64,000 nt of DNA from Amphiscolops sp. MND2022 (lineage: Eukaryota): positions 71,798,001 to 71,862,000 of the forward strand of contig OZ076409.1 in NCBI GenBank assembly GCA_964187785.1, read 5' to 3'. Under the pieces are notes generated by a model. The model was not told the DNA's origin. It saw only the letters and a list, made by a program, of their open reading frames with translations, and ran no database searches. The translations under genes and the position numbers were made by a program. How positions within the stretch are numbered: position 1 is the first letter of the stretch; every line of letters starts with the position of its first letter. Shown piece by piece: positions 1 through 64,000 of this stretch.

Positions 1-183
1 ACAACTATAAATTGTTTGTTTTTCACCGTAATTAGTTTACGACCCATCACCCTATGTCACGGCACCGTCATTAGTACAACGCCACATAGTGTTGCGACGT
101 GCACAGTCTGTGGGCATGCCGAGGCATGCCCTTCGACGACGTATGCCGAATACCGCGGGCCTACGCCCGCGCTCCCCGGCTAG
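1..183 (+). mobile_element. 3' end of a unit truncated by the window edge (alpha end, CGCGGGC-CTAC-GCCCGCG hairpin)
   Basis: Conserved core at 77-183 ending in CTAG. Confidence 0.6.
112..131. promoter_or_regulatory. Palindromic protein-binding site GGGCATGCCG-AGGCATGCCC, a 19/20 match to the p53-family element (representative; present in all 25 unit ends)
   Basis: Two adjacent RRRCWWGYYY decamers with zero spacer and one mismatch. Function is not demonstrated. Confidence 0.5.
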
Positions 184-5442: not shown

Positions 5443-5473
5443 GTGGGCGGGGGTAATTCCCCAACAAAAAAAT

Positions 5474-5501
5474 CGGCCGGCGGGTCGGGTCCTGCCGGCC
5501 G
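5474..5501 (+). other. 5' subterminal stem-loop CGGCCGGCGGG-TCGGGT-CCTGCCGGCCG (representative)
   Basis: Found 31-50 bp after the junction in the units examined, with different stems but a similar loop. Confidence 0.85.
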
Positions 5502-6259
5502 TCCAAAATCAAAATCCTCCTAGTAGAAAACGGCATGTCAAACGAGCTATTTTTTTATTTAACCGTTAGAATTTGGGTTTAGATTGCATGCGGCCATGAA
5601 ATGGCCATACGAATGGAAGTTCTTGCTGACGTTTTGCGATTGAAACACTTTATAAAAAGTTATGGCCAATTTGTCATTCACCTAGAAGGGCGAAATGAGG
5701 AAAATTTTAACAAAGTCACTGATAACTCAAAATGTAATAATTTTTGGAGTTTGACAGTGAAACAAGCTTGGAACTGTCATTTCGTGGCTGTGGCATTGCA
5801 CTGAACACAAAAGATGTAAAGTTTTCACATTTTTCGAAAATTCGACATTTTTGATTTTTTTTTCACTACTATCAGTACACTATATGTCAAAAACGCCTCT
5901 GAAAAATATTTTTATTTGCTTAAAATTAGAAACCTTGGTATCCATGGTTTCCGTCAGTACCTACTCGCTGCCAAACGCTCAACAGTTTGCATACAATGTG
6001 AAAATATAATTTTTTTCGAGGTCATAGGTGTTTCACAAGGATTTCTCAACTTAGTATCTATTTACAAATTGGTCATTTTGAACACGTTATTTTCATCGAA
6101 GCGTGTCAGATACCACCCTAATGCTCACGAATGGGCCTACTGGCAACGTTGGAACCATTTTTAGTAATAGAAAGTATTAAAAAAATATTTTCACCCGGTC
6201 TTCAGTCATTTTTCAGACATTCGGTACTTAACTTAGAAAAATTTCGCATCAAAAACCCA

Positions 6260-7400
6260 TATTTGGTAGGGTCGAAATTTGAAATTCAGTTTTTTATGCA
6301 AAATTATTAACTCTGACGTAACCAGTGGAGCCCATGATACTCAAAAACACGATTGGGACTGGTATCAGTGGCTCCAATAACATATGAGCCGCGATAAGAC
6401 GTTATTCAGAGCAAACGCTCTAAATCGAAGTAAACATCTCTGAAGCCTGGGATCACAGTGAAATGTGATATAACCAAAAGTTTACTCTTTTTTTGTCAAT
6501 CACTATGTACACAGAGTGCTTAGGGTGAGTTTCAGGACTATAATGAGGTTTTTGAAGTAATCGCGCTGCTCAAGGGGTGGTATGAGACTATTTTTTCCCA
6601 TATACTACTACATTTCCATAAGTTTGCAGTCCATTGTCTTGGAAAGATAACTTCACAAAAACAATTTTTCTACTCTATTCAGTTATTAGAATAAAGTTGA
6701 ACACTGTGGGTGATCAGAAATGCTCAATTCTTTTGGTTTTTAAAAAAATTCCTTCGCATTCGTTACATTTGTGGAAGGAAGGTTATCAGTAGCTCCAAAA
6801 AAAAACGAAATTTAGCACGAACAGACATGCAACGATGCAAAGCAAAAACGTTTTTACAACTTCCGACGTCATTATTTTACCCAAGAATCTCGAAAATATT
6901 ATTCGCAATGCTGTCATTCGCTATATATACGATCGCGGTCAATTTACAAACATTTAGATTTCATTGTTCTGCTTGAAAACCAATTTTTGTCAGGTCGAAA
7001 TTTTAAATTTTGCCTGGGGAGCAATACCCTTCACGCTGAAGTAAACAGTGGGGCCCAAGTTACTCAAAAACAAGAAAGAGACTGCTACAATATGTCCTAA
7101 TAACATATGGACCACGATAGTACGTTTTTCACACAAAAAACTCTCATCCGAAGTAAATATGTTGAAAGCTTTTAATCACCGTGAGAAGTGATTTCATCAA
7201 AAGATAACTCTTTTTTGTCAATCACTATTTACACAGAATTTGTAAAGTTAGTTTGAGTCATGAAATGAGGCTTTACCGTAATATGGGTTGCTCAAGGTGT
7301 TATATAAGACAAAAACTTCCTCTTTTCTACTAGCTTCTTCAAATATTTCAACTCTTTGTCACAATAAGTTAATTTTCAAAATCTCTTTGAAATGTATCTT
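6260..7400 (+). repeat. Old diverged ~720 bp tandem duplication inside long units
   Basis: The motif series ggtcgaaa / g(g/a)gccca.g.tactcaaaaaca / aataacatatg / tcaatcactat / gctcaagg recurs ~723 bp later (for example ~6325 and ~7048). Confidence 0.75.
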
Positions 7401-7677
7401 TATGTTGGGGTGAAGTCTAAGAACAATAACTATGATCGAAGAATGCTAGTACTGGTGTTTGAACCATGTCCGGATGAACAAATCACAATATCATCAAAAA
7501 ATTGTTCCCTTTTTTGGTTATTTTGGCAGTACTAAAAATGTTAGCCGATAAATAATTTTTTCGATGGCACCATTGGATTCCTCTCAAAAAGTTGATTATA
7601 TGACCTGTGTAATAACCCCGTATCTTTTCAATTTAAATATATTTAAAAAGCCAACTATTTTGACCAAAATCCTAAAA

Positions 7678-8945
7678 ATCATACCATTTCCTAAAAATTT
7701 TCAAATGCACCCCATTTGACGTATAAGATAAGCACAGAAAACTATCATATACCGATCAACTCTACTCCTATTGTAGATTATTAGAATTTTGTTTAGAATG
7801 AATTTTGATGAATAATAAAAAAATTTTGAACCCTCCAAAAATGGGCCAAATTTACACGAAAAAATTGACCTTAAAATACCAAAATGTTAAAAAATCATCA
7901 AAACCCAGGCTTCTTGGGGTTCTATCAACTCCGCGTGGTCCACAGAGTATGCTAAAACAGGTTTTACCCGTTTTTGAGCAATATGTGAAAAAGCCGACAT
8001 TTTTGGGAAAGAAAAACATACCATTTCCTAAAAAAATTCAAATGCACGTCATTTGCCGTATTAGAATAGCACAGAAAACTATCACATACCAATCAACTCT
8101 ACTTTCATTGCAGATGAACAGAATTTTGTTTAGAATAAATTTTACCGGATAATAAAAAAATTTGAATCCTTCAAAATTGGGCCAAAAATACACGAAAAAA
8201 TGGACCTTAAAAATTTAAAATGTCAAAAAATCATCAAAACAACTGCTTCTTGGGGTTCTATCAACTCCACGAGGTCCACAGAGTATGCTAAAACAGGTTT
8301 TACCCGTTTTTGAGCAATATGTGAAAAAGCCGACATTTTTGGGAAAGAAAAACATACCATTTCCTAAAAAAATTCAAATGCACGCCATTTGCCGTATGAA
8401 AATAGCACAGAAAACTATCACATACCAATCAACTCTACTTTCATTGCAGATGAACAGAATTTTGTTTAGAATAAACTTTACCGGATAATAAAAAAATTTG
8501 ATTCCTTCTAAAATGGGCCAAAATTACACGAAAAAATGGACCTTAAAATTTTAAAATGTCAAAAAATCATCAAAACCACGGCTTCTTGGGGTTCTATCAA
8601 CTCCACGTGGTCCACAGAGTATGCTTAACCCGGTTTTACCCATCTTTGATCAAAATGTGAAAATACCGACATTTTTGGAAAAGAAAAACAGGCCATTTTC
8701 TAATAAATTTCAAATGCACGCCATTTGCTGTATGAGAATAACACAGAAAGCTGTCACATACCGATCAACTCTACTTCCATTGTAGATTATCAGAAGTTTG
8801 TTTAGAATAAATTTTGAAGGATAATAAAAAAATTTGAAACCATCAAAAATGGGTCAAATTTACACGAAAAAATTGACCTTAAAATATCAAAATGTCAAAA
8901 AATCATCAAAACCACAATTTCTTGGCGTTCTATCAACTCCATATG
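7678..8945 (+). repeat. ~336 bp internal tandem repeat, ~3.8 copies (U4)
   Basis: Anchor ttgg(g/c)gttctatcaactcc at ~7914, 8250, 8587 and 8922. Confidence 0.9.
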
Positions 8946-9230
8946 ATACCAAACCAGGTACTGCCAATCGTTTGAGTTATAATAAAAAAACGTCTTTTTT
9001 GGCAAGAATTCCATACCATAAATAATAATCATGTTCCATATAAGAAACGAATCATTTCAGATATATACCCTGTTCATTTTTTTAATATTACCGATTATTA
9101 ATTTAATAGATGTTTTGAATGTGAGCTTCCTAAAAGGTTCAGGTGTGATGATACGTAAATAGAACCTTAGTTTCATCGAAATCTCAATTGAATATGTCCA
9201 ATCTTAACCATCAGATAACAAGAAACACTT

Positions 9231-9273
9231 AAGTACATTCCATCTCCCCATCGGGGGAGATGAGAATGTACTT
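9231..9273 (+). other. B-type internal hairpin AAGTACATTC-CATCTCCCC-loop-GGGGAGATG-A-GAATGTACTT (representative; 8 units)
   Basis: Inverted repeat with a single bulged A; also at 1154-1192, 13994-14035 and 62292-62334. Confidence 0.9.
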
Positions 9274-10205
9274 TCGAGAAGCCAAATACGTCCAACATTC
9301 AAACTTTTGTAACTTTGTATGTAACTCCTGAAACGAAGAAGGAATAAAATTGTTTCTGGTACATACATGAGTCTTTACTTCAGCTTCTATTTCTGCTGAA
9401 CAAAACCATTCGACTCTTTTGCCGGACTTAAGATCGATTGTATTACCCAGTGAACAAAGGCATGATTGAAAACGTTTACTACTTTGTTCATAATTTTCCG
9501 GCCTTCCGAAATGATGAAACGTCCACATAACTAAGATAGCAAGTGAATGACTGCGAAATGCACCTTATTAGATGAGGTAAATAACGTGTAAAACTCTCCT
9601 TTATCCTAACATGAGGTTGAGTAATGATCATTTGAGAATAGTTTGATATGTGAATACAATAGTATAAAACAAGTACATTTTATATGAATAACGCCGTGGA
9701 AAGCGTTCAGAAAGGACAGTAGGCTTGTTTGGAATATGTATGTGTGGTGTCCCTTGGTGGCGTTCGCTTAGTGTATATGTCGAGGGGTATTCGAGTTGTT
9801 ATGATAGAATTTACACACAAGTCTTTTGTTTTTTGGTTTTTTTAAAATGTCGTTAAGTACCTGCATTCTATCCCCTTCTCAGAGATGACGTGAAGTTACG
9901 TTTGCTAAATAATTGTCATCGAAAGATCACACTCCCGACGAAATTAACTATCTTAACACGTGTTTAGAATTTTAAATGAACAACCGTATAAGATTTTTTT
10001 ATTTCATTGAGTTTGATGAAGTCTTTTGTTCTTCTCACTACTATTTCAACCAATACACATATCCGTTACCATATCACATGTCTCCATTAGTACAACGCCA
10101 CATAGCGTTCCGACGCCCACAGTCTGTGGGCATGCCGAGGCATGCCCTTCGACGACGTATGGCAAATGGAGCCATGCCCGCCGTCTTTACGGCGGTAGCG
10201 GCTAG

Positions 10206-13200
10206 GTGGGCGGGGGTAATTCCCCAACTAAAAATTCGGCCGGCGGGTCGGGTCCTGCCGGCCGTCCAAAATCAAAATCCTACTAGTAGAAAACGGCATG
10301 TCAAACGAGCTATTTTTTTATTTAACCGTTAGAATTTGGGTTTAGATTGCATGCGGCCATGAAATGGCCATACGAATTGAAGTTCCTGCTGACGTTTTGC
10401 GATTGAAACACTTTATAAAAAGTTATGGCCAATTTGTCAGTCACCTAGAAGGGCAAAATGAGGAAAATTTTAACAAAGTCGCTGATATCTCAAAATGTGT
10501 TAATTTTTGGACTTTGACTGTGAAACAAGCTTGGAACCTTCATTTCGTGGCTGTGGCATTGCACTGAACACAAAAGCTGTAAAGTTTTCACATTTTTTGA
10601 AAATTCGACATTTTTGAAATTTCTTTCACTACCATCAGTACCCCATATGTCAAAAACACCTCAGAAAAAAATTTTTATTTGCTTTAAATTGGAAACCTTG
10701 GTATCCATGGTTTCTGTCGGAACCTACTCGCAGCCAAACACCCAACAGTTTGCATCCAATGTGAAATAAAAAATTTTTTCGAGGTCATAAGCGTTTCACA
10801 AGGTTTTCATGATTTAGTATTAATTTACATAGTGGTCATTTTAAACATAAAATTTTGGTCCAGGCATGTCGGATATAGTCTGAATGCTCACGAACGGTCC
10901 TACTGGCAACGTATGAACCATTTATAGTAATAAAAAGTATTAAAAAATTTTTTTCACCCGGTCTTCAGTCATTTTTCAGACATTCGGAACTTAACTTAGA
11001 AATTTTTCGAACCAAATACCCATTTTTTGTCAGGTCGAAAATTGAAATTCAGCTAATAAAGCAAAATTTTTTACTCTGACGTAACCAGTGGGGTCCATGA
11101 TACTCAAAAATACGATTGGGACTGGTACCAATGGCTCCTATATCATATGAGCCGCGATAAGATGTTATTTCGAGCAATACGTCTCAATTGAGGTAAACAT
11201 CTCGCAAGCCTGGGATCACAGTGAATTGTAATTTTATCAAAATTTTACTCATTTTTGTCAATCACTATGTGCACAGAGTGCGTAGGGGGAGTTGTAGCAC
11301 TATAATGAGGTTTTTGAAGGCATCGGGTTGCTCAAGGGGTGGTATGAGACATTTTTTTCCTATATACTACTGTATTTTCCAAAACTTTTAGCCCATTATC
11401 TGCAAAAACTAACTTGACAAAATACTTTGAGTTACTCTACTCAAAGCTTAGAACATAGATGAACACTGTGGTTGATCAGAAACTATTTACTATTTTGTTT
11501 TTAGAAAAAACTGCCTTGCATGTGTTACACTAGTGGCAGGAAAAATACCAGTAGCTCCAAAAATCACAAATTTGGACGGACAGACTTGCAATGATGCAAA
11601 GCAAAAACGTTTCAACAACTTCTGACGCCACTTCTTTTACCCAAGAGGTTCGAAAACGCCATTAACAAGGCTGACATTTGCAATAAATAAGATCGAGGTC
11701 CATTTACTAACACTTAGGTTTCAAATTTGTTTCTGAGAAACCCATTTTTGTCTGGTCGCAATTTCAAATTTAATCTGGGAAGCAAAATTTTTCACTCTGA
11801 AGCAAACCGCTGGGCCCAAATTACTCAAAAACAACAAAAAGACTATCACCATATGCTCTAATAACATATGAGATGCGACAGTATGCTTTTAACACAAAAA
11901 CTCTCATCCGAAGTAAACATGTTGAAAGCCTTGAATCACCGTGAGAAGTGATTTCATCAAAAAATATTTCTTTTTCGTCAATCACTATATACACAAAACC
12001 CGTTGTGTTAGTTTCAGCCGTGAAATGAGGTTCTACCGTAATATGGGTTGCTCAAGGTGTTGTATAAGAGAAAATCGTCCTCTTTTCTACTAACTTCTTC
12101 AAATATTTCGACCCTTTGTCACACGAAGTTAAAATTCAAAATCTCTTTGAATTGTTTCTTTAGGTTGGGATGAAGTGGTAGAACAATAACTTTGATCGAA
12201 GAATGCTAGTATTGGTGTTTGGACCATGTTTGGATGAACAAATCGCAAAATCATGAAAAATTTGTTTCTTTTTTTGGTTATTTTGGCAGTACTAAAAATG
12301 TTAGCTGACAAATAATTTTTTCGATAGCACCATTGGATTCGGCTCAAAAAGTTGGTTATATGACATGTGTAATAACGCCGTATCTTTTCAATTTAAATAT
12401 ATTTAAAAAGCCAACTTTTTTGACCAAAATCCTAAAAATCATACCATTTCCTAAAAAATTTCAAATGCACCCCATTTGACGTATAACAATAGCACAGAAA
12501 ACTATCATATACCGATCAACTCTACTCTCATTGTGGATTATTAGCATTTTGTTTTGAACGAATTTTGATGGATATTAAAAAATTTTGAACCCTCCAAATA
12601 TGGGCCAAAATTACACGAAAAAATTGACCTTAAAATTTTAAAATGTCAAAAAATCATCAAAACTACAGCTTCTTGGGGTTCTATCAACTCCACGTGGTCC
12701 ACAGAGTACGCTAAAACAGGTTTTACCCGTTTTTGAGCAATATGTGAAAAAGCCGACATTTTTGGGAAAGAAAAACATCCCATTTCCTAAAAAAATTCAA
12801 TTGCACGCCATTTGCCGTATGAGAATAGCACGGAAAACTATCACATACCGATCAACTCTACTTTTATTGTAGATGAATAAAAATTAGTTTAAAACAAATT
12901 TTGACGGATATTAAAAAATTTTAAACCATTAAAAAATGGGCCAAAATTACACGAAAAAATTGACCTTAAAATTTTAAAATGTCACAAAATCATCAAAACC
13001 ACAGCTTCTTGGGGTTCTATCAACTCCACGTGCTCCACAGAGTACGCTAAAACAGGTTTTACCCGTTTTTGAGCAATATGTGAAAAAGCCGACATTTTTG
13101 GGGAAGAAAAAATAGGCATTTCCTAAAAAAATCAAATGCACGCCATTTGCCGTATAAGAATTGCACAGAAAACTATCATATACCGATCAACTCTACTCCC

Positions 13201-14952
13201 ATTGTAGATTATTAGAATTTTATTTTGAATGATTTTTGATGGTTATTAAAAAATTTTGAGCCCCCCAAAAGCGGGCCAAAATTACACGAAAAAATTGACC
13301 TTAAAATTTTAAAATGTCAAATAATCATCGAAACCACAGCTTCTTGGGGTTCTATCCACTCCACATGGCCCACAGAGTATGCCAAACCAGGTTTTGCGCG
13401 TTTTTGAGCAATATTTGAGAAAGCCGAGTTTTTTGGGGAAGAAAAACATAACATTTCCTAATAAAATTCAAATGCACGCCATTTGGCGTATGACAATAGC
13501 ACAGAAAACTATCACATACTAATCAACTCTACTCTCTTTGTAGATCACCAGAGTTTTGCTTAGAATAAATTTTGATGAATATTTGTAAATTTTAAACCCT
13601 CCTAATATGGGCCAAAATCACACGGAAAAATTGACCCTAAGGTATTAAAATGTCAGAAATTCATCAAAACCACAGCTTCTTGGGGTTCTATCATTTCTAT
13701 ATGACTTTCAGAGTATACCAAACAAGGTATTAACATTGGGCGATAATTAAAAACACCAATTTTATTTTAGAAGAAAACCATAATAAGTTCAATATAAGAA
13801 GTGAATCATTCCATATATATACCCTGTCTTATATTTTAAATTAGCGATAATATATATACTTGATGTTTTTTGAAAGTGAGCTTCATAAGTGGTTGAGATG
13901 TGATAATACGTAAATGGATTCCAAGTTTCATCGAAATGTCAATGGAATACGTCCAATCAACTTCAATCTTAACAATTAGATAACAAAAAACCTAAGTACA
14001 TTCCATCTCCCCATCGGGGAGATGAGAATGTACTTTTCAAAAACCAAAAACTTAGATGTTTTTTTTGTAACACTTACTGTAACTGCTGAAATGATGAAAG
14101 AATAATTATGCTTCTAATAACTCCATGGTTTTTTGCTTCAGCATTTTTTTTGCAGAACAAAACCATCAGACATATTTTTCGCAGTTAAGTTCGATCGTAT
14201 TACCCAGTGAACAAAGGTATGGAAGGATGTTTACAAGTTGTTTCAAAACTTTCCCGCCTTCCAAAATAATGAAACGTCTACACAACCAAGATAGCAAATG
14301 AATGAATGCGGAATGCATCTTATTAGATAAGATAAATAACGTGTAGAACTTACCTTTATCTGAAGTTGACGTTGATTTATGATCTTTAGAGGATAGTTTG
14401 ATTTTTGACCATAATAGTGGGAAACTAATTATTATATGAATGATGGCGTGGAAAGCGTTCAGAAATTGTAGTATTTTGGATTCGAGCATGTATGCGTGGG
14501 TTCCTTTGGTGGCGTTAGCTTAGTGTACATGATGGAAGTTTTCGATCTGTTATGATTAATTTTACTCACGAGTCTTTGTTTTTCCTATTTTTTTGCCATT
14601 AAGTACATTCATTCTATCCCCTTTTCTGAGAATGTACGTTTGTCAAATGACTGTCATCCAAATTTTGCATTCCCGAAGAGTTTAAATACATAACACGTGT
14701 TTAGCGTTTCCAAATCACAACCGAGTAACATTCTATTTTTTTTCTCAAAATTGATAATGGTTTTGATTTTGGTGTCTTCTACTTTCATCATCCATCATAA
14801 CAACCACCTTACCATGTCTCTCGCTTGTCTTCATTTTACAACGCCACATAGTGTAGCGACGCCCACAGTCTGTGGGCATGCCGAGGCATGCCCTTCGACG
14901 ACGTATGCCAAATTTAGCAATAGCCCGCGGTCACTACCGCGGTAGCAGCTAG
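10206..14952 (+). mobile_element. Unit U5, 4747 bp, long type L2, B hairpin, beta end
   Basis: Near-identical to U9; collinear with but diverged from L1. Confidence 0.6.
12438..13700 (+). repeat. ~336 bp internal tandem repeat, ~3.8 copies (U5)
   Basis: Same anchors and spacing as in U4. Confidence 0.9.
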
Positions 14953-17900
14953 GTGGGCGGGGGTAATTCCCCAACAAAAAAATCGGCCGGCGGGTCGGGT
15001 CCTGCCGGCCGTCCAAAATCAAAATCCTCCTAGTAGAAAACGGCCGGTCAAACGAGCTATTTTTTTATTTAACCGTTAGAATTTGGGTTTAGATTGCATG
15101 CGGCCATGAAATGGCCATACGAATGGAAGTTCCTGCTGACGTTTTGCGATTGAAACACTTTATAAAAAGTTATGGCCAATTTGTCATTCACCTAGAAGGG
15201 CAAAATGAGGAAAATTTTAACAAAGTCACTGATAACTCAAAATGTAATAATTTTTGGACTTTGACAGTGAAACAAGCTTGGAACTGTCATTTCGTGGCTG
15301 TGGCATTGCACTGAACACAAAAGATGTAAAGTTTTCACATTTTTTGAAAATTCGACATTTTTGAATTTTTTTTCACTACTATCAGTACACTATATGTCAA
15401 AAACGCCTCTGATAAAAATTTTTATTTGCTTAAAATTAGAAACCTTGGTATCCATGGTTTCCGTCAGTACCTACTCGCTGCCAAACGCTCAACAGTTTGC
15501 ATCCAATGTGAAAATATAATTTTTTTCGAGGTCATAGGTGTTTCACAAGGATTTCTCAACTTAGTATCTATTTACAAATTGGTCATTTTGAACACATTAT
15601 TTTCATCGAAGCGTGTCAGATACCACCCTAATGCTCACGAATGGGCCTACTGGCAACGTTGGAACCATTTTTAGTAATAGAAAGTATTAAAAAAATATTT
15701 TCACCCGGTCTTCAGTCATTTTTCAGACATTCGGTACTTAACTTAGAAAAATTTCGCATCAAAAACCCATATTTGGTAGGGTCGAAATTTGAAATTCAGT
15801 TTTTTATGCAAAATTATTAACTCTGACGTAACCAGTGGAGCCCATGATACTCAAAAACACGATTGGGACTGGTATCAGTGGCTCCAATAACATATGAGCC
15901 GCGATAAGACGTTATTCAGAGCAAACGCTCTAAATCGAAGTAAACATCTCTGAAGCCTGGGATCACAGTGAAATGTGATATCACCAAAAGTTTACTCTTT
16001 TTTGTCAATCACTATGTACACAGAGTGCGTAGGGTGAGTTTCAGGACTATAATGAGGTTTTTGAAGTAATCGCGCTGCTCAAGGGGTGGTATGAGACTAT
16101 TTTTTCCCATATACTACTACATTTCCATAAATTTGCAGTCCATTGTCTTGGAAAGATAACTTCACAAAAACAATTTTTCTACTCTATTCAGTTATTAGAA
16201 TAAAGTTGAACACTGTGGTTGATCAGAAATGCTCAATTCTTTTGGTTTTTAAAAAAATTCCTTCGCATTCGTTACATTTGTGGAAGGAAGGTTATCAGTA
16301 GCTCCAAAAAAAACGAAATTTAGCACGAACAGACATGCAACGATGCAAAGCAAAAACGTTTTTACAACTTCCGACGTCATTATTTTACCCAAGAAGTTCG
16401 AAAATATCATTCGCAATGCTGTCATTCGCTATATATACGATCGCGGTCAATTTACAAACATTTAGATTTCATTGTTCTGCTTGAAAACCAATTTTTGTCA
16501 GGTCGAAATTTTAAATTTTGCCTGGGGAGCAATACCCTTCACGCTGAAGTAAACAGTGGGGCCCAAGTTACTCAAAAACAAGAAAGAGACTGCTACAATA
16601 TGTCCTAATAACATATGGACCACGATAGTACGTTTTTCACACAAAAAACTCTCATCCGAAGTAAATATGTTGAAAGCTTTTAATCACCGTGAGAAGTGAT
16701 TTCATCAAAAAATAACTCTTTTTTGTCAATCACTGTTTACACAGAATTTGTAAAGTTAGTTTGAGTCATGAAATGAGGCTTTACCGTAATATGGGTTGCT
16801 CAAGGTGTTATATAAGACAAAAACTTCCTCTTTTCTACTAGCTTCTTCAAATATTTCAACCCTTTGTCACAATAAGTTAATATTCAAAATCTCTTTGAAA
16901 TGTATCTTTATGTTGGGGTGAAGTCTAAGAACAATAACTATGATCGAAGAATGCTAGTACTGGTGTTTGAACCATGTCCGGATGAACAAATCACAAAATC
17001 ATCAAAAAATTGTTCCCTTTTTTGGTTATTTTGGCAGTACTAAAAATGTTAGCCGATAAATAATTTTTTCGATGGCACCATTGGATTCCTCTCAAAAAGT
17101 TGGTTATATGACCTGTGTAATAACCCCGTATCTTTTCAATTTAAATATATTTAAAAAGCCAACTATTTTGACCAAAATCCTAAAAATCATACCATTTCCT
17201 AAAAATTTTCAAATGCACCCCATTTGACGTATAAGATAAGCACAGAAAACTATCATATACCGATCAACTCTACTCCTATTGTAGATTATTAGAATTTTGT
17301 TTAGAATGAATTTTGATGAATATTAAAAAAATTTTGAACCCTCCAAAAATGGGCCAAAATTACACGAAAAAATTGACCTTAAAATACCAAAATGTCAAAA
17401 AATCATCAAAACCCAGGCTTCTTGGGGTTCTATCAACTCCGCGTGGTCCACAGAGTATGCTAAAACAGGTTTTACCCGTTTTTGAGCAATATGTGAAAAA
17501 ACCGACATTTTTGGGAAAGAAAAACATACCATTTCCTAAAAAAATTCAAATGCACGTCATTTGCCGTATTGGAATAGCACAGAAAACTATCACATACCAA
17601 TCAACTCTACTTTCATTGCAGATGAACAGAATTTTGTTTAGAATAAATTTTACCGGATAATAAAAAAATTTGAATACTTCAAAAATGGGCCAAAAATACA
17701 CGAAAAAATGGACCTTAAAAATTAAAATGTCAAAAATCATCAAAACAACAGCTTCTTGGGGTTCTATCAACTCCACGAGGTCCACAGAGTATGCTAAAAC
17801 AGGTTTTACCCGTTTTTGAGCAATATGTGAAAAAGCCGACATTTTTGGGAAAGAAAAACATACCATTTCCTAAAAAAAATCAAATGCACGCCATTTGCCG

Positions 17901-23692: not shown

Positions 23693-26600
23693 GTGGGCGG
23701 GGGTAATTCCCCAACTAAAAATTCGGCCGGCGGGTCGGGTCCTGCCGGCCGTCCAAAATCAAAATCCTACTAGTAGAAAACGGCATGTCAAACGAGCTAT
23801 TTTTTTATTTAACCGTTAGAATTTGGGTTTAGATTGCATGCGGCCATGAAATGGCCATACGAATTGAAGTTCCTGCTGACGTTTTGCGATTGAAACACTT
23901 TATAAAAAGTTATGGCCAATTTGTCAGTCACCTAGAAGGGCAAAATGAGGAAAATTTTAACAAAGTCGCTGATATCTCAAAATGTGTTAATTTTTGGACT
24001 TTGACTGTGAAACAAGCTTGGAACCTTCATTTCGTGGCTGTGGCATTGCACTGAACACAAAAGCTGTAAAGTTTTCACATTTTTTGAAAATTCGACATTT
24101 TTGAAATTTCTTTCACTACCATCAGTACCCCATATGTCAAAAACACCTCAGAAAAAAATTTTTATTTGCTTTAAATTGGAAACCTTGGTATCCATGGTTT
24201 CTGTCGGAACCTACTCGCAGCCAAACACCCAACAGTTTGCATCCAATGTGAAATAAAAAAATTTTTCGAGGTCATAAGCGTTTCACAAGGTTTTCATGAT
24301 TTAGTATTAAATTACATAGTGGTCATTTTAAACATAAAATTTTGGTCCAGGCATGTCGGATATAGTCTGAATGCTCACGAACGGTCCTACTGGCAACGTA
24401 TGAACCATTTATAGTAATAAAAAGTATTAAAAAAATTTTTTCACCCGGTCTTCAGTCATTTTTCAGACATTCGGAACTTAACTTAGAAAATTTTCGAACC
24501 AAATACCCATTTTTTGTCAGGTCGAAAATTGAAATTCAGCTAATAAAGCAAAATTTTTTACTCTGACGTAACCAGTGGGGTCCATGATACTCAAAAATAC
24601 GATTGGGACTGGTACCAATGGCTCCTATATCATATGAGCCGCGATAAGATGTTATTTCGAGCAATACGTCTCAATTGAGGTAAACATCTCGCAAGCCTGG
24701 GATCACAGTGAATTGTAATTTTATCAAAATTTTACTCATTTTTGTCAATCACTATGTGCACAGAGTGCGTAGGGGGAGTTGTAGCACTATAATGAGGTTT
24801 TTGAAGGCATCGGGTTGCTCAAGGGGTGGTATGAGACATTTTTTTCCTATATACTACTGTATTTTCCAAAACTTTTAGCCCATTATCTGCAAAAACTAAC
24901 TTGACAAAATACTTTGAGTTACTCTACTCAAAGCTTAGAACATAGATGAACACTGTGGTTGATCAGAAACTATTTACTATTTTGTTTTTAGAAAAAACTG
25001 CCTTGCATGTGTTACACTAGTGGCAGGAAAAATACCAGTAGCTCCAAAAATCACAAATTTGGACGGACAGACTTGCAATGATGCAAAGCAAAAACGTTTC
25101 AACAACTTCTGACGCCACTTCTTTTACCCAAGAGGTTCGAAAACGCCATTAACAAGGCTGACATTCGCAATAAATAAGATCGAGGTCCATTTACTAACAC
25201 TTAGGTTTCAAATTTGTTTCTGAGAAACCCGTTTTTGTCAGGTCGCAATTTCAAATTTAATTTGGGAAGCAAAATTTTTCACTCTGAAGCAAACCGCTGG
25301 GCCCAAATTACTCAAAAACAACAAAAAGACTATCACCATATGCTCTAATAACATATGAGATGCGACAGTATGCTTTTAACACAAAAACTCTCATCCGAAG
25401 TAAACATGTTGAAAGCCTTGAATCACCGTGAGAAGTGATTTCATCAAAAAATATTTCTTTTTCGTCAATCACTATATACACAAAACCCGTTGTGTTAGTT
25501 TCAGCCGTGAAATGAGGTTCTACCGTAATATGGGTTGCTCAAGGTGTTGTATAAGAGAAAATCGTCCTCTTTTCTACTAACTTCTTCAAATATTTCGACC
25601 CTTTGTCACACGAAGTTAAAATTCAAAATCTCTTTGAATTGTTTCTTTAGGTTGGGATGAAGTGGTAGAACAATAACTTTGATCCAAGAATGCTAGTATT
25701 GGTGTTTGGACCATGTTTGGATGAACAAATCGCAAAATCATGAAAAATTTGTTTCTTTTTTTGGTTATTTTGGCAGTACTAAAAATGTTAGCTGACAAAT
25801 AATTTTTTCGATAGCACCATTGGATTCCGCTCAAAAAGTTGGTTATATGACATGTGTAATAACGCCGTATCTTTTCAATTTAAATATATTTAAAAAGCCA
25901 ACTTTTTTGACCAAAATCCTAAAAATCATACCATTTCCTAAAAAATTTCAAATGCACCCCATTTGACGTATAACAATAGCACAGAAAACTATCATATACC
26001 GATCAACTCTACTCTCATTGTGGATTATTAGCATTTTGTTTTGAACGAATTTTGATGGATATTAAAAAATTTTGAACCCTCCAAATATGGGCCAAAATTA
26101 CACGAAAAAATTGACCTTAAAATTTTAAAATGTCAAAAAATCATCAAAACTACAGCTTCTTGGGGTTCTATCAACTCCACGTGGTCCACAGAGTACGCTA
26201 AAACAGGTTTTACCCGTTTTTGAGCAATATGTGAAAAAGCCGACATTTTTGGGAAAGAAAAACATCCCATTTCCTAAAAAAATTCAATTGCACGCCATTT
26301 GCCGTATGAGAATAGCACGGAAAACTATCACATACCGATCAACTCTACTTTTATTGTAGATGATTAAAAATTAGTTTAAAACAAATTTTGACGGATATTA
26401 AAAAATTTTAAACCCTTAAAAAATGGGCCAAAATTACACGAAAAAATTGACCTTAAAATTTTAAAATGTCACAAAATCATCAAAACCACAGCTTCTTGGG
26501 GTTCTATCAACTCCACGTGGTCCACAGAGTACGCTAAAACAGGTTTTACCCGTTTTTGAGCAATATGTGAAAAAGCCGACATTTTTGGGGAAGAAAAAAT

Positions 26601-28442
26601 AGGCATTTCCTAAAAAAATCAAATGCACGCCATTTGCCGTATAAGAATAGCACAGAAAACTATCATATACCGATCAACTCTACTCCCATTGTAGATTATT
26701 AGAATTTTATTTTGAATGATTTTTGATGGTTATTAAAAAATTTTGAGCCCCCCAAAAGCGGGCCAAAATTACACGAAAAAATTGACCTTAAAATTTTAAA
26801 ATGTCAAATAATCATCGAAACCACAGCTTCTTGGGGTTCTATCCACTCCACATGGCCCACAGAGTATGCCAAACCAGGTTTTGCGCGTTTTTGAGCAATA
26901 TTTGAGAAAGCCGAGTTTTTTGGGGAAGAAAAACATAACATTTCCTAATAAAATTCAAATGCACGCCATTTGGCGTATGACAATAGCACAGAAAACTATC
27001 ACATACTAATCAACTCTACTCTCTTTGTAGATCACCAGAGTTTTGCTTAGAATAAATTTTGATGAATATTTGTAAATTTTAAACCCTCCTAATATGGGCC
27101 AAAATCACACGGAAAAATTGACCGTAAGGTATTAAAATGTCAGAAATTCATCAAAACCACAGCTTCTTGGGGTTCTATCATTTCTATATGACTTTCAGAG
27201 TATACCAAACAAGGTATTAACATTGGGCGATAATTAAAAACACCAATTTTATTTTAGAAGAAAACCATAATAAGTTCAATATAAGAAGTGAATCATTCCA
27301 TATATATACCCTGTCTTATATTTTAAATTAGCGATAATATATATACTTGATGTTTTTTGAAAGTGAGCTTCATAAGTGGTTGAGATGTGATAATACGTAA
27401 ATGGATTCCAAGTTTCATCGAAATGTCAATGGAATACGTCCAATCAACTTCAATCTTAACAATTAGATAACAAAAAACCTAAGTACATTCCATCTCCCCA
27501 TCGGGGAGATGAGAATGTACTTTTCAAAAACCAAAAACTTAGATGTTTTTTTTTTGTAACACTTACTGTAACTGCTGAAATGATGAAAGAATAATTATGC
27601 TTCTAATAACTCCATGATTTTTTGCTTCAGCATTTTTTTTGCAGAACAAAACCATCAGACATATTTTTCGCAGTTAAGTTCGATCGTATTACCCAGTGAA
27701 CAAAGGTATGGAAGGATGTTTACAAGTTGTTTCAAAACTTTCCCGCCTTCCAAAATAATGAAACGTCTACACAACCAAGATAGCAAATGAATGAATGCGG
27801 AATGCATCTTATTAGATAAGATAAATAACGTGTAGAACTTACCTTTATCTGAAGTTGACGTTGATTTATGATCTTTAGAGGATAGTTTGATTTTTGACCA
27901 TAATAGTGGGAAACTAATTATTATATGAATGATGGCGTGGAAAGCGTTCAGAAATTGTAGTATTTTGGATTCGAGCATGTATGCGTGGGTTCCTTTGGTG
28001 GCGTTAGCTTAGTGTACATGATGGAAGTTTTCGATCTGTTATGATTAATTTTACTCACGAGTCTTTGTTTTTCCTATTTTTTTGCCATTAAGTACATTCA
28101 TTCTATCCCCTTTTCTGAGAATGTACGTTTGTCAAATGACTGTCATCCAAATTTTGCATTCCCGAAGAGTTTAAATACATAACACGTGTTTAGCGTTTCC
28201 AAATCACAACCGAGTAACATTCTATTTTTTTTTCTCAAAATTGATAATGGTTTTGATTTTGGTGTCTTCTACTTTCATCATCCATCATAACAACCACCTT
28301 ACCATGTCTCTCGCTTGTCTTCATTTTACAACGCCACATAGTGTAGCGACGCCCACAGTCTGTGGGCATGCCGAGGCATGCCCTTCGACGACGTATGCCA
28401 AATTTAGCGTTAGCCCGCGGTCACTACCGCGGTAGCAGCTAG
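23693..28442 (+). mobile_element. Unit U9, 4750 bp, long type L2
   Basis: Near-identical to U5. Confidence 0.6.
25925..27190 (+). repeat. ~336 bp internal tandem repeat (U9)
   Basis: Same anchors and spacing as in U5. Confidence 0.9.
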
Positions 28443-30425
28443 GTGGGCGGGGGTAATTCCCCTTCAAAAAATTCGGCCGGCGGGTTGGGTCCTGCCGGAC
28501 GTCAAATAGTGTGAAACATCCAGTAGGAAACGGCGACATTTATCAGCGATTTTAAAATTGAACCGTTAGAATTTGGACTTGGAGTGCATGCGGGCCCAAA
28601 ATGCCCATACGAATCGAAGTTCCTGCTGACGTTAAGCGATAAAAACACTTTATAAAAAGTTATGGCCCATTTTACGTTCACTTAGAGAGGTAAAATGAGG
28701 AAAATTTTAACAAAGTTGCTGATAACTCAAAATACATTAATTTTTGGACTTTGACTGTGAAACAAGCTTGGAACCTTCATTTCGTGGCTGTGGCATTGCA
28801 CTGAACACAAAAGATGTAAAGTTTTCACATTTTTTGAAAATTCGACATTTTTGAATTTTTTTCACTACTATCAGTACACTATATGTCAAAAACACCTCAG
28901 AAAAAAATTTCTATTTGCTTAAATTTAGAAACCTCGGTATCCATGGTTTCCGTCAGTACCTACTCGCAGCCAAACACTCAACAAATTGCATCCAATGTGA
29001 AAATAAAATTTTTTTCGGGGTCATAAGCGTTTCACAAGGATTTCTCAACTTAGTATTAATTTACAAAATGGTCATTTTGAACACAATATTTTCATCGAGG
29101 CTTGTCGGCTATAGCCTTAATGTTCTAGAACGGTCCCACTGGCAACGTAGGAACCATTTATAGTAATAGAAAGTTTTAAAAAAATTTTTTCATCCGGTCT
29201 TCAGTCATTTTTCAGTCATTCGGAACTTAACTTAGAAAAATTTCGACCAAAATACCCATTTTTTGTCAGGTCGAAAATTCAAATTCAGATTTTTAAGCAA
29301 AATTATTAACTCTGAAGTAACCCATGGGGCCCATGATACTCAAAACAACAATTGACACTGGTATCAATGGCTCCAATAACATATGAGTCGCGATAAGACG
29401 TTATTTTGAGCAATACGTCTCAATTGAGGTAAAGATCTCGCAAGCCAGCGATCACTGTGAAATGTGATTTCATCAAAAATTTACTCATTTTTGTCAATCA
29501 CTATGTGCACAGAATGCGTAGGGTGCGTTTCAGCACTATAATGAGGTATTTGAAAGCATCGAGTTGCTCAAGGGGTGGTATGAGACCTTTTTGTCCCATA
29601 TACTTCTGTATTTTCCAAAATTTTTAGCCCAATATCTGGAAATACAAACATGACAAAATACTTTCAACTACTTTATTCAAAGGTTACAATATAGATGAAC
29701 ACTGTGGTTGATCAGAAACTTTCATCTCTTTCGTTTTCCGAAATATTTCCCTTCGCATGTGTTACATTTGTAGCAGAAAAAAAATCGATACAGAAAAATA
29801 CGCTATTTTGCTAATATAGAATCGCAATGATTGTGCCTAAAAACTCTTTAAACACTTCTAACGCGACCTTACGCACCCAAAAAGATCGAAAAGGCTATTC
29901 ACAATGGTGACTTGTGCTCTTTCAACGATCCTGACTGAACAATTTTCGCAAATTATTCAAGTACCTGTTAACTGAATCTCGTGATAGCCTTTTAAGTTGG
30001 CCTTGTGTCAACTTGGGAAGGCTATCACATCAAAAAATTTTCAACAAAAATACTTTTTGTTTATTGAAAATGACAGTCGATATATAATTTCGTGATTCTA
30101 TGCTACCGTTAGTACCTTCCATTAAGTCACCTGACGATTGCATTCAGTCTTTGATAAATACCTATGAACTCGAAGTCATATTTATAAATTTTTTGCTAAA
30201 AATAAACATCAAAATTATCCAAATTTATTAAAATTGAGTCTTTATTGTTTTTGTTTTTCTTTTTCTACTGTTATTAGGCCCATCAACTTCCTACAGCCAC
30301 GCTCTCTGTCATACTGTACAACGCCACATAGTGTTGCGACGTGCACGGTCTGTGGGCATGCCGAGGCATGCCCTTCGACGACGTATGCCGAATACCGCGG
30401 GCCTACGCCCGCGCTCCCCGGCTAG
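28443..30425 (+). mobile_element. Unit U10, 1983 bp, 2 kb family, alpha end
   Basis: Near-identical to U21. Confidence 0.6.
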
Positions 30426-33400
30426 GTGGGCGGGGGTAATTCCCCAACAAAAAAATCGGCCGGCGGGTCGGGTCCTGCCGGCCGTCCAAAATCAAAATCC
30501 TCCTAGTAGAAAACGGCCGGTCAAACGAGCTATTTTTTTATTTAACCGTTAGAATTTGGGTTTAGATTGCATGCGGCCATGAAATGGCCATACGAATGGA
30601 AGTTCCTGCTGACGTTTTGCGATTGAAACACTTTATAAAAAGTTATGGCCAATTTGTCATTCACCTAGAAGGGCAAAATGAGGAAAATTTTAACAAAGTC
30701 ACTGATAACTCAAAATGTAATAATTTTTGGACTTTGACAGTGAAACAAGCTTGGAACTGTCATTTCGTGGCTGTGGCATTGCACTGAACACAAAAGATGT
30801 AAAGTTTTCACATTTTTTGAAAATTCGACATTTTTGAATTTTTTTCACTACTATCAGTACATTATATGTCAAAAACGCCTCTGAAAAAAATTTTTATTTG
30901 CTTAAAATTAGAAACCTTGGTATCCATGGTTTCCGTCAGTACCTACTCGCTGCCAAACGCTCAACAGTTTGCATCCAATGTGAAAATATAATTTTTTTCG
31001 AGGTCATAGGTGTTTCACAAGGATTTCTCAACTTAGTATCTATTTACAAATTGGTCATTTTGAACACATTATTTTCATCGAAGCGTGTCAGATACCACCC
31101 TAATGCTCACGAATGGGCCTACTGGCAACGTTGGAACCATTTTTAGTAATAGAAAGTATAAAAAAAATATTTTCACCCGGTCTTCAGTCATTTTTCAGAC
31201 ATTCGGTACTTAACTTAGAAAAATTTCGCATCAAAAACCCATATTTGGTAGGGTCGAAATTTGAAAGTCAGTTTTTTATGCAAAATTATTAACTCTGACG
31301 TAACCAGTGGAGCCCATGATACTCAAAAACACGATTGGGACTGGTATCAGTGGCTCCAATAACATATGAGCCGCGATAAGACGTTATTCAGAGCAAACGC
31401 TCTAAATCGAAGTAAACATCTCTGAAGCCTGGGATCACAGTGAAATGTGATATCACCAAAAGTTTACTCTTTTTTGTCAATCACTATGTACACAGAGTGC
31501 GTAGGGTGAGTTTCAGGACTATAATGAGGTTTTTGAAGTAATCGCGCTGCTCAAGGGGTGGTATGAGACTATTTTTTCCCATATACTACTACATTTCCAT
31601 AAATTTGCAGTCCATTGTCTTGGAAAGATAACTTCACAAAAACAATTTTTCTACTCTATTCAGTTATTAGAATAAAGTTGAACACTGTGGTTGATCAGAA
31701 ATGCTCAATTCTTTTGGTTTTTAAAAAAATTCCTTCGCATTCGTTACATTTGTGGAAGGAAGGTTATCAGTAGCTCCAAAAAAAACGAAATTTAGCACGA
31801 ACAGACATGCAACGATGCAAAGCAAAAACGTTTTTACAACTTCCGACGTCATTATTTTACCCAAGAAGTTCGAAAATATCATTCGCAATGCTGTCATTCG
31901 CTATATATACGATCGCGGTCAATTTACAAACATTAAGATTTCATTGTTCTGCTTGAAAACCAATTTTTGTCAGGTCGAAATTTTAAATTTTGCCTGGGGA
32001 GCAATACCCTTCACGCTGAAGTAAACAGTGGGGCCCAAGTTACTCAAAAACAAGAAAGAGACTGCTACAATATGTCCTAATAACATATGGACCACGATAG
32101 TACGTTTTTCACACAAAAAACTCTCATCCGAAGTAAATATGTTGAAAGCTTTTAATCACCGTGAGAAGTGATTTCATCAAAAAATAACTCTTTTTTGTCA
32201 ATCACTATTTACACAGAATTTGTAAAGTTAGTTTGAGTCATGAAATGAGGCTTTACCGTAATATGGGTTGCTCAAGGTGTTATATAAGACAAAAACTTCC
32301 TCTTTTCTACTAGCTTCTTCAAATATTTCAACCCTTTGTCACAATAAGTTAATATTCAAAATCTCTTTGAAATGTATCTTTATGTTGGGGTGAAGTCTAA
32401 GAACAATAACTATGATCGAAGAATGCTAGTACTGGTGTTTGAACCATGTCCGGATGAACAAATCACAAAATCATCAAAAAATTGTTCCCTTTTTTGGTTA
32501 TTTTGGCAGTACTAAAAATGTTAGCCGATAAATAATTTTTTCGATCGCACCATTGGATTCCTCTCAAAAAGTTGGTTATATGACCTGTGTAATAACCCCG
32601 TATCTTTTCAATTTAAATATATTTAAAAAGCCAACTATTTTGACCAAAATCCTAAAAATCATACCATTTCCTAAAAATTTTCAAATGCACCCCATTTGAC
32701 GTATAAGATAAGCACATAAAACTATCATATACCGATCAACTCTACTCCTATTGTAGATTATTAGAATTTTGTTTAGAATGAATTTTGATGAATATTAAAA
32801 AAATTTTGAACCCTCCAAAAATGGGCCAAAATTACACGAAAAAATTGACCTTAAAATACCAAAATGTCAAAAAATCATCAAAACCCAGGCTTCTTGGGGT
32901 TCTATCAACTCCGCGTGGTCCACAGAGTATGCTAAAACAGGTTTTAATCGTTTTTGAGCAATATGTGAAAAAACCGACATTTTTGGGAAAGAAAAACATA
33001 CCATTTCCTAAAAAAATTCAAATGCACGTCATTTGCCGTATTAGAATAGCACAGAAAACTATCACATACCAATCAACTCTACTTTCATTGCAGATGAACA
33101 GAATTTTGTTTAGAATAAATTTTACCGGATAATAAAAAAATTTGAATACTTCAAAAATGGGCCAAAAATACACGAAAAAATGGACCTTAAAAATTTAAAA
33201 TGTCAAAAAATCATCAAAACAACAGCTTCTTGGGGTTCTATCAACTCCACGAGGTCCACAGAGTATGCTAAAACAGGTTTTACCCGTTTTTGAGCAATAT
33301 GTGAAAAAGCCGACATTTTTGGGAAAGAAAAACATACCATTTCCTAAAAAAATTCAAATGCACGCCATTTGCCGTATGAAAATAGCACAGAAAACTATCA

Positions 33401-35185
33401 CATACCAATCAACTCTACTTTCATTGCAGATGAACAGAATTTTGTTTAGAATAAATTTTACCGGGTAATAAAAAAATTTGATTCCTTCTAAAATGGGCCA
33501 AAATTACACGAAAAAATGGACCTTAAAATTTTAAAATGTCAAAAAATCATCAAAACCACGGCTTCTTGGGGTTCTATCAACTCCACGTGGTCCACAGAGT
33601 ATGCTTAACCCGGTTTTACCCATCTTTGAGCAAAATGTGAAAATACCGACATTTTTGGAAAAGAAAAACATGCCATTTTCTAATAAATTTCAAATGCACG
33701 CCATTTGCTGTATGAGAATAACACAGAAAGCTGTCACATACCGATCAACTCTACTTCCATTGTAGATTATCAGAAGTTTGTTTAGAATAAATTTTGAAGG
33801 ATAATAAAAAAATTTGAATCCATCAAAAATGGGCCAAAATTACACGAAAAAATTGACCTTAAAATGTCAAAATGTCAAAAAATCATCAAAACGACAATTT
33901 CTTGGCGTTCTATCAACTCCATATGATACCAAACCAGGTACTGCCAATCGTTTGAGTTATAATAAAAAAACGTCTTTTTTGGCAAGAATTCCATACCATA
34001 AATAATAATCATGTTCCATATAAGAAGCGAATCATTTCAGATATATACCCTGTTCATTTTTTTAATATTACCGATTATTAATTTAATAGATGTTTTGAAT
34101 GTGAGCTTCCTAAAAGGTTCAGGTGTGATGATAATTAAATAGAACCTTAGTTTCATCGAAATCTCAATTGAATATGTCCAATCTTAACCATCAGATAACA
34201 AGAAACACTTCAGTACATTCCATCTCCCCATCGGGGGAGATGAGAATGTACTTTCGAGAAGCCAAATACGTCCAACATTCAAACTTTTTTAACTTTGTAT
34301 GTAACTCCTGAAACGAAGAAGGAATAAAATTGTTTCTGGTACATACATGAGTCTTTACTTCAGCTTCTATTTCTGCTGAACAAAACCATTCGACTCTTTT
34401 GCCGGAGTTAAGATCGATTGTATTACCCAGTGAACAAAGGCATGACTGAAAACGTTTACTACTTTGTTCATAATTTTCCGGCCTTCCGAAATGATGAAAC
34501 GTCCACATAACTAAGATAGCAAGTGAATGACTGCGAAATGCACCTTATTAGATGAGGTAAATAACGTGTAAAACTCTCCTTTATCCTAACATGAGGTTGA
34601 GTAATGATCATTTGAGAATAGTTTGATATGTGAATACAATAGTATAAAACAAGTACATTTTATATGAATAACGCCGTGGAAAGCGTTCAGAAAGGACAGT
34701 AGGCTTGTTTGGAACATGTATGTGTGGTGTCCCTTGGTGGCGTTCGCTTAGTGTATATGTCGAGGGGTATTCGAGTTGTTATGATAGAATTTACACACAA
34801 GTCTTTTGTTTTTTGGTTTTTTTACAATGTCGTTAAGTACCTGCATTCTATCCCCTTCTCAGAGATGACGTGAAGTTACGTTTGCTAAATAAATGTCATC
34901 GAAAGATCACACTCCCGACGAAATTAACTATCTTAACACGTGTTTAGAATTTTAAATAAACAACCGTATAAGATTTTTATATTTCATTGAGTTTGATGAA
35001 GTCTTTTGTTCTTCTCACTACTATTTCAACCAATACACATATCCGTTACCATATCACATGTCTCCATTAGTACAACGCCACATAGCGTTCCGACGCCCAC
35101 AGTCTGTGGGCATGCCGAGGCATGCCCTTCGACGACGTATGGCAAATGGAGCCATGCCCGCCGTCTTTACGGCGGTAGCGGCTAG
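30426..35185 (+). mobile_element. Unit U11, 4760 bp, long type L1
   Basis: Near-identical to U4 and U6. Confidence 0.6.
32658..33925 (+). repeat. ~336 bp internal tandem repeat (U11)
   Basis: Same anchors and spacing as in U4. Confidence 0.9.
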
Positions 35186-63993: not shown

Positions 63994-64000
63994 GTGGTCG

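Follow-up and report, generated by a model that had tools for sequence, protein, structure and literature searches.

Whole units of several gene-free families are shuffled at a shared eight-base joint in a 64-kb tandem array

Organization of the array

The 64-kb window, i.e., the whole stretch of DNA analysed here, is made up of non-coding units that all point the same way: 24 are complete (U1 to U24) and measure 1.3-5.4 kb, and a partial unit stands at either window edge. The units were defined by cutting at GCTAG|GTG, and the resulting numbering matches that of an earlier first-pass annotation of the same DNA. The octamer at these joints, GCTAGGTG, occurs 25 times on the plus strand and not once on the minus strand, against about 0.35 occurrences expected from base composition. 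The array is real and unusual: whole units have been shuffled one by one, the break falls within about 9 bp at the joint, and several families are mixed along the same stretch.

Three classes were distinguished among the 24 units, namely 14 short units of about 1.99 kb, six long units of 4.75-5.43 kb, and four others (U1, U22, U23 and U24). The long units are homologous to the short family over their first 1.3-1.5 kb, and identity reaches 98.7-99.4% within the long type L1 (U4, U6, U11) and 99.6% within the long type L2 (U5, U9). The interiors of U1, U22, U23 and U24 bear no relation, or at most a distant one, to the remaining units; all four meet their neighbours at the same octamer and have hairpin-bearing ends in common with the other units. 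Six joints that involve unrelated or distant families are exact and without insertions or deletions (indels). A profile search of the window detected 25 tails (3' ends) and 24 heads (5' ends), all of them intact, on the plus strand and at joints, with none stray or truncated. The order of short and long units has no period within the window.

Position of the exchange point

To characterize the order of the units we compared every length-matched pair that the 24 units allow and called those at least 96% identical twin pairs. Eight such pairs were obtained, and in all eight the neighbours differ on both sides. The neighbour lists that the first-pass annotation had given for L1, L2 and U10/U21 proved exact, as did its description of U10 and U21 as near-identical units (99.6%) with different neighbours on both sides. 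Past the cut, the eight twin pairs remain exactly identical for 5-32 bp on the left and 4-60 bp on the right. For U10/U21 this identity covers only 5 bp on the left and 4 bp on the right, placing the break within -5..+4 of the cut, at the junction where the annotation had put it. A single fixed exchange position, if one is used, lies within GCTAG|GTGG, i.e., in the octamer or one base beyond.

Linkage was assessed by Mantel tests (1000 permutations, 150-bp end segments). Within a unit, head and tail were correlated although 2-5 kb separate them (rho 0.62, p 0.001, 20 units; a value owed partly to twins and class structure), and the tail and the following unit's head were not (rho -0.09, p 0.80, 19 joints); lag-1 periodicity was seen neither from head to head nor from tail to tail. 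The annotation had also proposed that linkage breaks across the octamer, and the corresponding check gave an abrupt drop, the r2 between single-nucleotide polymorphisms being 0.044 over the joint (permutation mean 0.058) versus 0.123 inside the unit. Furthermore, 48 shared tracts (96 ends) were obtained with a minimum length of 400 bp and a minimum identity of 97%, and not one of them extends further than 60 bp beyond a joint, where random placement predicts about 12.5 crossings for the 40 short-unit tracts, which are not independent of one another. Tract ends lie at most 65 bp from the cut in 24 of 96 cases, in a zone that makes up 5% of the window.

The twins are not clustered (mean spacing 6.6 units versus 8.3 at random, p 0.20), and no near-identical units are adjacent among the 24, which argues against an origin of the array by insertion of concatemers or by duplication in place. 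Blocks of several units repeated in register, as in higher-order-repeat satellites, are absent within the 24 units, and none of the eight twin pairs has a neighbour in common. In agreement with the earlier proposal that units move singly and not as multi-unit blocks, these data support the single whole unit as the moving entity and the octamer as its exchange point. As twins only 0.4-0.6% apart already have different neighbours, shuffling at the joints is the faster process and exchange between interiors the slower one.

Table 1. Features of the array and their positions in the 64-kb window
Feature	Position	Strand	Remarks
Whole array	179..63996	+	profiles match 25 tails and 24 heads, each of them at a joint and on +
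Joint octamer GCTAGGTG, example	5438..5445	+	25 identical copies, from 179 to 63989
U1, separate family, 1276 bp, internal hairpin type A	184..1459	+	73% identity to U23 over the 3' 356 bp of U1
U2 and U3, short family, internal hairpin type B	1460..5442	+	14 members in window
U4, long type L1, gamma tail, hairpin A	5443..10205	+	first ~1.3-1.5 kb homologous to short family
U6, long type L1	14953-19712	+
U11, long type L1	30426-35185	+
U5, long type L2, beta-type tail	10206..14952	+
U9, long type L2	23693-28442	+
U10, short twin of U21	28443..30425	+	99.6% identity to U21
U21	56543-58526	+	99.6% identity to U10
U20, chimeric long unit	51111..56542	+	3' part 98-99% to L1; 5' part 87-90% to L1/L2; 336-bp repeat x5.8
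U22 (2798 bp), U23 (1282 bp), U24 (1387 bp), three more families	58527..63993	+	same ends and joints
336-bp internal tandem repeat of long units	7674..8941 (U4), 53339-55278 (U20)	+	3.7-5.8 copies
503-bp internal tandem repeat of U22	58896-60095		~2.4 copies
Conserved tail core	5355..5394	+	20-bp palindrome 5365-5384 inside, in 25/25 tails, starts 65-79 bp before cut
Terminal hairpin, beta type	5415..5432	+	7-bp stem, 4-nt loop; ends 10 nt before CTAG end
Head: small G/C hairpin (5450-5462) and covarying stem with conserved G-rich loop (5474-5501)	5450..5501	+
Internal bulged hairpin type A	9231..9273	+	8/24 units, and metagenomic locus L001
Internal bulged hairpin type B	4988..5033	+	16 units: 15 by pattern, U14 by BLAST; never alongside type A

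Base composition differs along the units, with 63% GC in the joint regions versus 35% in the interiors; the observed/expected ratio of CpG is 1.13 versus 0.93, indicating no CpG depletion. The long units also contain an older duplication of about 70% identity at an offset of 725 bp. The partial last unit (63994-64000) has the same first 7 bases as U1, and a second U1-type unit may follow.

Conserved structures at the unit ends

A tail contains a pair of short direct repeats, a core of 36 nt, of which 33 positions do not vary among 12 representatives, and a terminal hairpin that differs between tails. In every one of the 25 tails, the 20-bp palindrome of the core agrees with what we take to be the p53-family consensus at 19 of 20 positions. 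The bases at the outer positions of the palindrome covary (G..C or A..T), a pattern that suits a hairpin and a symmetric site equally well. The terminal hairpin is present in 22 of the 25 tails as a perfect stem of 5-7 bp, spans 14-18 nt overall and ends 10-12 nt before CTAG; five different stem sequences occur, with pairing kept perfect. In the head stem, 90% of the cells of nine representatives are paired and five of eight pairs have changed on both sides. The covariation score was reached by none of 500 shuffles and slid controls were paired at 35-60%, values that are supportive and do not amount to a probability, as the structure was read off the same sequences and two rows are off-register. 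G-T pairs on the plus strand favour a folded single plus strand. Both ends of the units thus have covarying hairpins.

In addition, every unit has a single bulged hairpin of about 40 nt in its interior, never more, and this is of either type A or type B, the two being unrelated to each other. The short-family 5' part and the type-A hairpin of the long units suggest that these may derive from an old chimera between families. Terminal inverted repeats (TIRs) were not found at any offset of the scan made for them (best mean 5.3 of 12 matches), nor were conserved sub-terminal inverted repeats across 11 representative units, among which a 6-8-bp complement between head and sub-terminal region occurs only in U3, U4, U5, U14 and U16 (5/11).

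Mosaic structure of the unit interiors

In a set of 11 core short units, r2 is 0.43 at less than 50 bp and declines to 0.10-0.11, the null level, beyond 1.4 kb. The earlier claim that linkage holds within a unit stands for recent twin copies and finds no support as a general rule. Chromosome painting identified U7, U8, U12, U13, U15, U17 and U19 as mosaic; 72 of the 96 tract ends lie inside units, and many tracts begin in a unit interior and end at a joint. The short family is a mosaic produced by interior crossovers or conversions. U17 combines an L1 head with a short body and a beta-type tail, and in U20 an L1 3' half is joined to a different 5' half. L1 modules are thus not exclusive to L1, which limits the further claim that this type always keeps its own 5' module together with the gamma end. 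Recombination among circles was also considered and is not supported: it predicts renewed linkage between head and tail, yet r2 is lowest at 1.9-2.1 kb.

Coding and RNA content

Coding capacity was examined with a list of open reading frames, under 20 NCBI genetic codes, and by Pfam searches of stop-free frames. The unit interiors are non-coding. The best Pfam score, to a viral polymerase sub-domain, reached 24.4 bits against a cut-off of 25 and was treated as chance. Some genetic codes other than the standard one give longer frames, up to 483 aa. Under the ciliate code (table 6), frames of 438 aa run over the 336-bp repeat of L1 at approximately 7801-9115 and 32781-34095, and these are probably a by-product of the AT-rich in-frame repeat. 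ARAGORN predicted no tRNA in the whole window, and an Rfam search of bases 1-10300 gave no family or ribozyme at threshold and four sub-threshold matches.

Relatives outside the window

A metagenome scan returned a single locus (L001; OBOP01004400.1, 1172 bp), which has the same tail core including the 20-bp palindrome (812-831), again with 19 of 20 consensus positions, a type-A internal hairpin and the head hairpins, and in which the joint reads GCGAGGTG. Its left side resembles U23 and its right side U24, at 70-87% over short stretches. Its ends and joint indicate that the architecture exists beyond this array. The order of its two sides is that of the window, by chance or as a conserved adjacency.

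Small shares of array sequence are also contained in three sequencing runs from three studies, with no RNA run among them; the evidence consists of contigs, from which no start, strand or level is obtainable. Aligned to U3, these contigs are short pieces, of which 8 of 28 are 95-99% identical and the rest lower. In a 519-bp contig of one run (X1), a tail is joined to a head at exactly 5442|3447. An AT-rich stretch of 37-44 bp in U3 (3812-3871) matches several deeper X1 contigs with unrelated flanks and is possibly a motif common to other repeat families.

Five viral scans and BLAST searches of phages and plasmids yielded no match, and four genome scans returned 0, 17, 0 and 0 loci. The 17 bacterial loci match by the palindrome only, have no flank similarity, mostly look like one conserved coding motif, presumably that of DnaE, and gave nothing in Rfam in the six searched; they were rejected. 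The host is probably an animal, as indicated by 64 kb without genes, the lack of prokaryotic matches, the style of the interiors (an impression) and the p53-like site.

Comparison with known mobile elements

In its workings the array is comparable to cases of site-specific accretion: Dada tandems (PMC3706591), double insertion at one site (10.1101/158386), and cassette or island stacks. In bacteria, integron cassette arrays and tandem stacks of integrative and conjugative elements and cis-mobilizable elements (ICE/CIME) likewise consist of non-autonomous units of mixed families with structured ends, a short crossover core and rebuilt joints. These cassettes and stacks carry genes and are located next to a known integrase or attachment (att) site, whereas the units of the array are gene-free and apparently eukaryotic. 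Non-coding Helitron derivatives have internal tandem repeats, as in the array.

None of the superfamilies tested accommodates the array, and we do not assign it to a family. Its 3' ends resemble those of Helitrons, a hairpin followed by CTRR: CTAG stands at 25 of 25 window tails, with the hairpin before it in 22, and Helitron/HLE1 elements also lack TIRs, have a 3' hairpin about 11 nt before CTAG and form precise head-to-tail joints (PMC11417382, PMC4778049). In Helraiser, a 19-bp palindrome lies 11 nt before CTAG and circles are joined precisely head to tail (PMC4778049). HLE1 inserts between A and T without a target-site duplication (TSD), whereas all 25 array joints are end-to-end G|G. Moreover, the neighbour of a unit is always the end of another element, several families stand in random order instead of a one-family concatemer, the array has an additional conserved tail core and 5' hairpins, and the L001 tail ends in CGAG. 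The inverted repeats of HLE2 (Helentron/Helitron2; PMC11417382) are absent.

Dada elements resemble the array in lacking TIRs, in being target-specific and in standing in tandem as different families with one target word between them (PMC3706591, PMC8869645). Their tandems comprise two elements in small-RNA genes, with a TSD of 6-7 bp and sub-terminal inverted repeats at a fixed distance (PMC3706591), whereas the array has at least 24 units, a shared word of 8 bp, no conserved sub-terminal inverted repeat and no visible RNA gene; inside the array, target word and element termini look alike. Cryptons also lack TIRs, have a short direct repeat at both termini and are proposed to pass through a circular intermediate; their repeat measures 4-6 bp, compared with the 8-bp word that flanks every unit and into which the break maps, the 11-13-bp inverted arms around their core are absent here at any offset, and the part of the description at hand mentions no arrays (PMC3212892).

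Complete head-to-tail elements are likewise found in R1, Bari1, P-element dimers and telomeric retrotransposon arrays, where each joint retains a single target word because insertions recur at the same site; such arrays mostly represent one family grown by unequal exchange and have joints with deletions or truncations (10.1101/158386). In contrast, every joint is exact here and the order is shuffled unit by unit. The 5' truncation and/or poly(A) of tandem retrotransposons that lack long terminal repeats (non-LTR) is not seen, all 24 heads being complete and free of an A tail, nor is a long direct repeat of the LTR/TRIM type present between adjacent units. Replitrons, as HUH elements with a short terminal direct repeat and a right-end hairpin, are similar, but the right ends of Replitron-1 are fuzzy and the word 'tandem' appears nowhere in the preprint on them (10.1101/2022.12.15.520654). 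KolobokP forms multimers and is proposed to insert as targeted circles; the long direct repeat between its units (PMC9587614) is absent from the array, where only 8-9 bp are common at the break. A Fanzor/IS607 system with the tail as omega-RNA was considered and rejected, since the inverted repeats described for it, as far as the description was available, are absent here. Resemblances to a splice site (AG|GT) and to kinetoplast minicircles were also noted. A literature search, with Repbase reports and most subscription journals outside its reach, found no title or abstract start describing such an arrangement.

Alternative explanations

An ordinary complex satellite, in which gene conversion and unequal crossover reshuffle passive repeats and the GC-rich conserved block at the joint is a recombination hot spot, would account for the mosaic interiors with their smooth decay of linkage, for the difference in GC content between joints and interiors, and for U13, which changes donor within the conserved tail block. 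Crossovers in the tail core would, however, transfer the variable terminal module together with the unit that follows, and identity 45 bp to the left of the cut is seen in none of the eight twin pairs. Shared tracts that do not extend past the joint, the lack of adjacent duplicates and of a higher-order period, and exact joints between unrelated families with only short end motifs in common also speak against passive exchange, which we consider unlikely and largely refuted by the 9-bp break interval. An assembly chimera, in which the assembler or the library chemistry would have linked up related molecules that are in fact circular or dispersed, is very improbable. A circle would also give the tail-head joint of X1, but misjoins require long identical overlaps, where unrelated families offer 8 bp, the differences between twins are for the most part substitutions at scattered positions (99 versus 13 indel columns in four pairs), and rolling-circle amplification would give adjacent identical copies, of which there are none.

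Two further explanations start from the conserved elements of the units. Host-maintained cassettes of functional non-coding RNA or structural DNA, shuffled by a domesticated recombinase, might be expected to be intact, to carry exactly one A or B hairpin each and to keep their ends across very divergent families, as is the case here. Selection for mobility alone conserves ends as well, the window has no tRNA and the part of it scanned with Rfam gave no match, and the interiors give the impression of AT-rich non-autonomous transposon sequence, so that this explanation is hardly credible. Alternatively, movement could be RNA-mediated as in telomeric or R1-type arrays, with the p53-family site of the tail driving transcription of the next unit, the hairpins serving as RNA signals and a site-specific retrotransposase carrying out insertion at the joint. 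The presumed p53 consensus, matched in every tail 65-79 bp before the next start, would be suitably placed, the hairpins fold on one strand, and template switching could yield mosaics; in addition, some transposons have acquired p53 sites, as the available part of one study describes (PMC5031199). Nevertheless, 5' truncation, which the accessible text reports as frequent in non-LTR tandems (10.1101/158386), affects none of the 24 units and none has a poly(A) tail. The palindrome is equally well explained as a hairpin or as a dimer-binding site, bases 1-10300 contain no Rfam family or ribozyme at threshold, and an RNA route is accordingly quite unlikely.

Proposed mechanism

We consider it likely that the units are non-autonomous mobile elements whose site-specific insertion takes place at joints already present, and that homologous exchange inside the units goes on more slowly. 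Base-exact joints between families that have only short end motifs in common, together with a break interval of about 9 bp, call for a site-specific reaction, and homologous exchange is not easily the cause of exact joining between units with unrelated interiors. We infer that mobility is conferred by an enzyme and proceeds through an intermediate in which tail and head are joined. Each unit would represent a single element, in which structured 5' and 3' ends enclose a non-coding interior. An enzyme whose gene lies elsewhere may copy or lift out one unit, whose ends would be joined tail to head, and the mobilised unit would be inserted at an existing tail|head joint. Each insertion would rebuild two joints, so that the array would grow in random order with families mixed. 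More slowly, chimeric units could arise where similar interiors undergo homologous crossover or conversion, and these units would later be moved, or reshuffled, whole.

Several observations weigh against this mechanism. The window lies inside the array and contains no array edge, solo copy or empty site. It has no transposase or recombinase gene, the longest stop-free frame measuring 123 aa in the standard code, and none of the 71 stop-free frames of U1, U2, U4, part of U5 and U22-U24 reached the curated cut-off of Pfam. An autonomous partner was not found in the collections searched, which are almost all prokaryotic or viral. With regard to the ends, U22-U24 are without the canonical terminal hairpin, the L001 tail ends in CGAG instead of CTAG, and all array heads start with GTG, where Helitron/HLE1 elements are described, in the part of the source at hand, as starting with TC (PMC11417382). 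The tail-head joint of the X1 contig fits an array and a circle equally well, the lack of adjacent twins is equally expected from random order (p 0.50), and the interior mosaics show that ordinary homologous exchange also acts in the array.

As to the chemistry of site-specific insertion, hairpins on one strand and the geometry of a hairpin followed by CTAG point to single-strand HUH chemistry of the Helitron or IS200-IS605-like kind, acting on the plus strand with a cut at CTAG|GTG; we regard this as the most likely option, if a tentative one. A circle recombined by a tyrosine or serine recombinase at an 8-bp core is rather unlikely, and a Dada-like DDE enzyme with target duplication is an improbable route. 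The array might, somewhat doubtfully, belong to a class of mobile DNA not yet described in eukaryotes, one that would form arrays in the manner of integrons and use its own tail|head joint as the only target of its enzyme. With the same reserve, gene-free families with common structured ends, and possibly with a p53-family switch, could stack, and be reshuffled singly, at a safe site of their own making.

Implications

Long tandem arrays of eukaryotes are usually explained by unequal exchange or by rolling-circle concatemers. The array described here makes a third route visible from sequence alone, namely base-exact shuffling, unit by unit, of several families at an 8-bp joint. The autonomous partner, if it exists, would encode a eukaryotic integrase that is site-specific and restores the target on which it acts, and the conserved unit ends provide a direct handle for finding this enzyme. 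Should such a partner exist, this would represent new transposon biology, in the form of harmless self-targeting, and a candidate tool for gene insertion; if the units do constitute an undescribed class, this would mean a sequence-specific integrase for cargo of 1-5 kb in animals.

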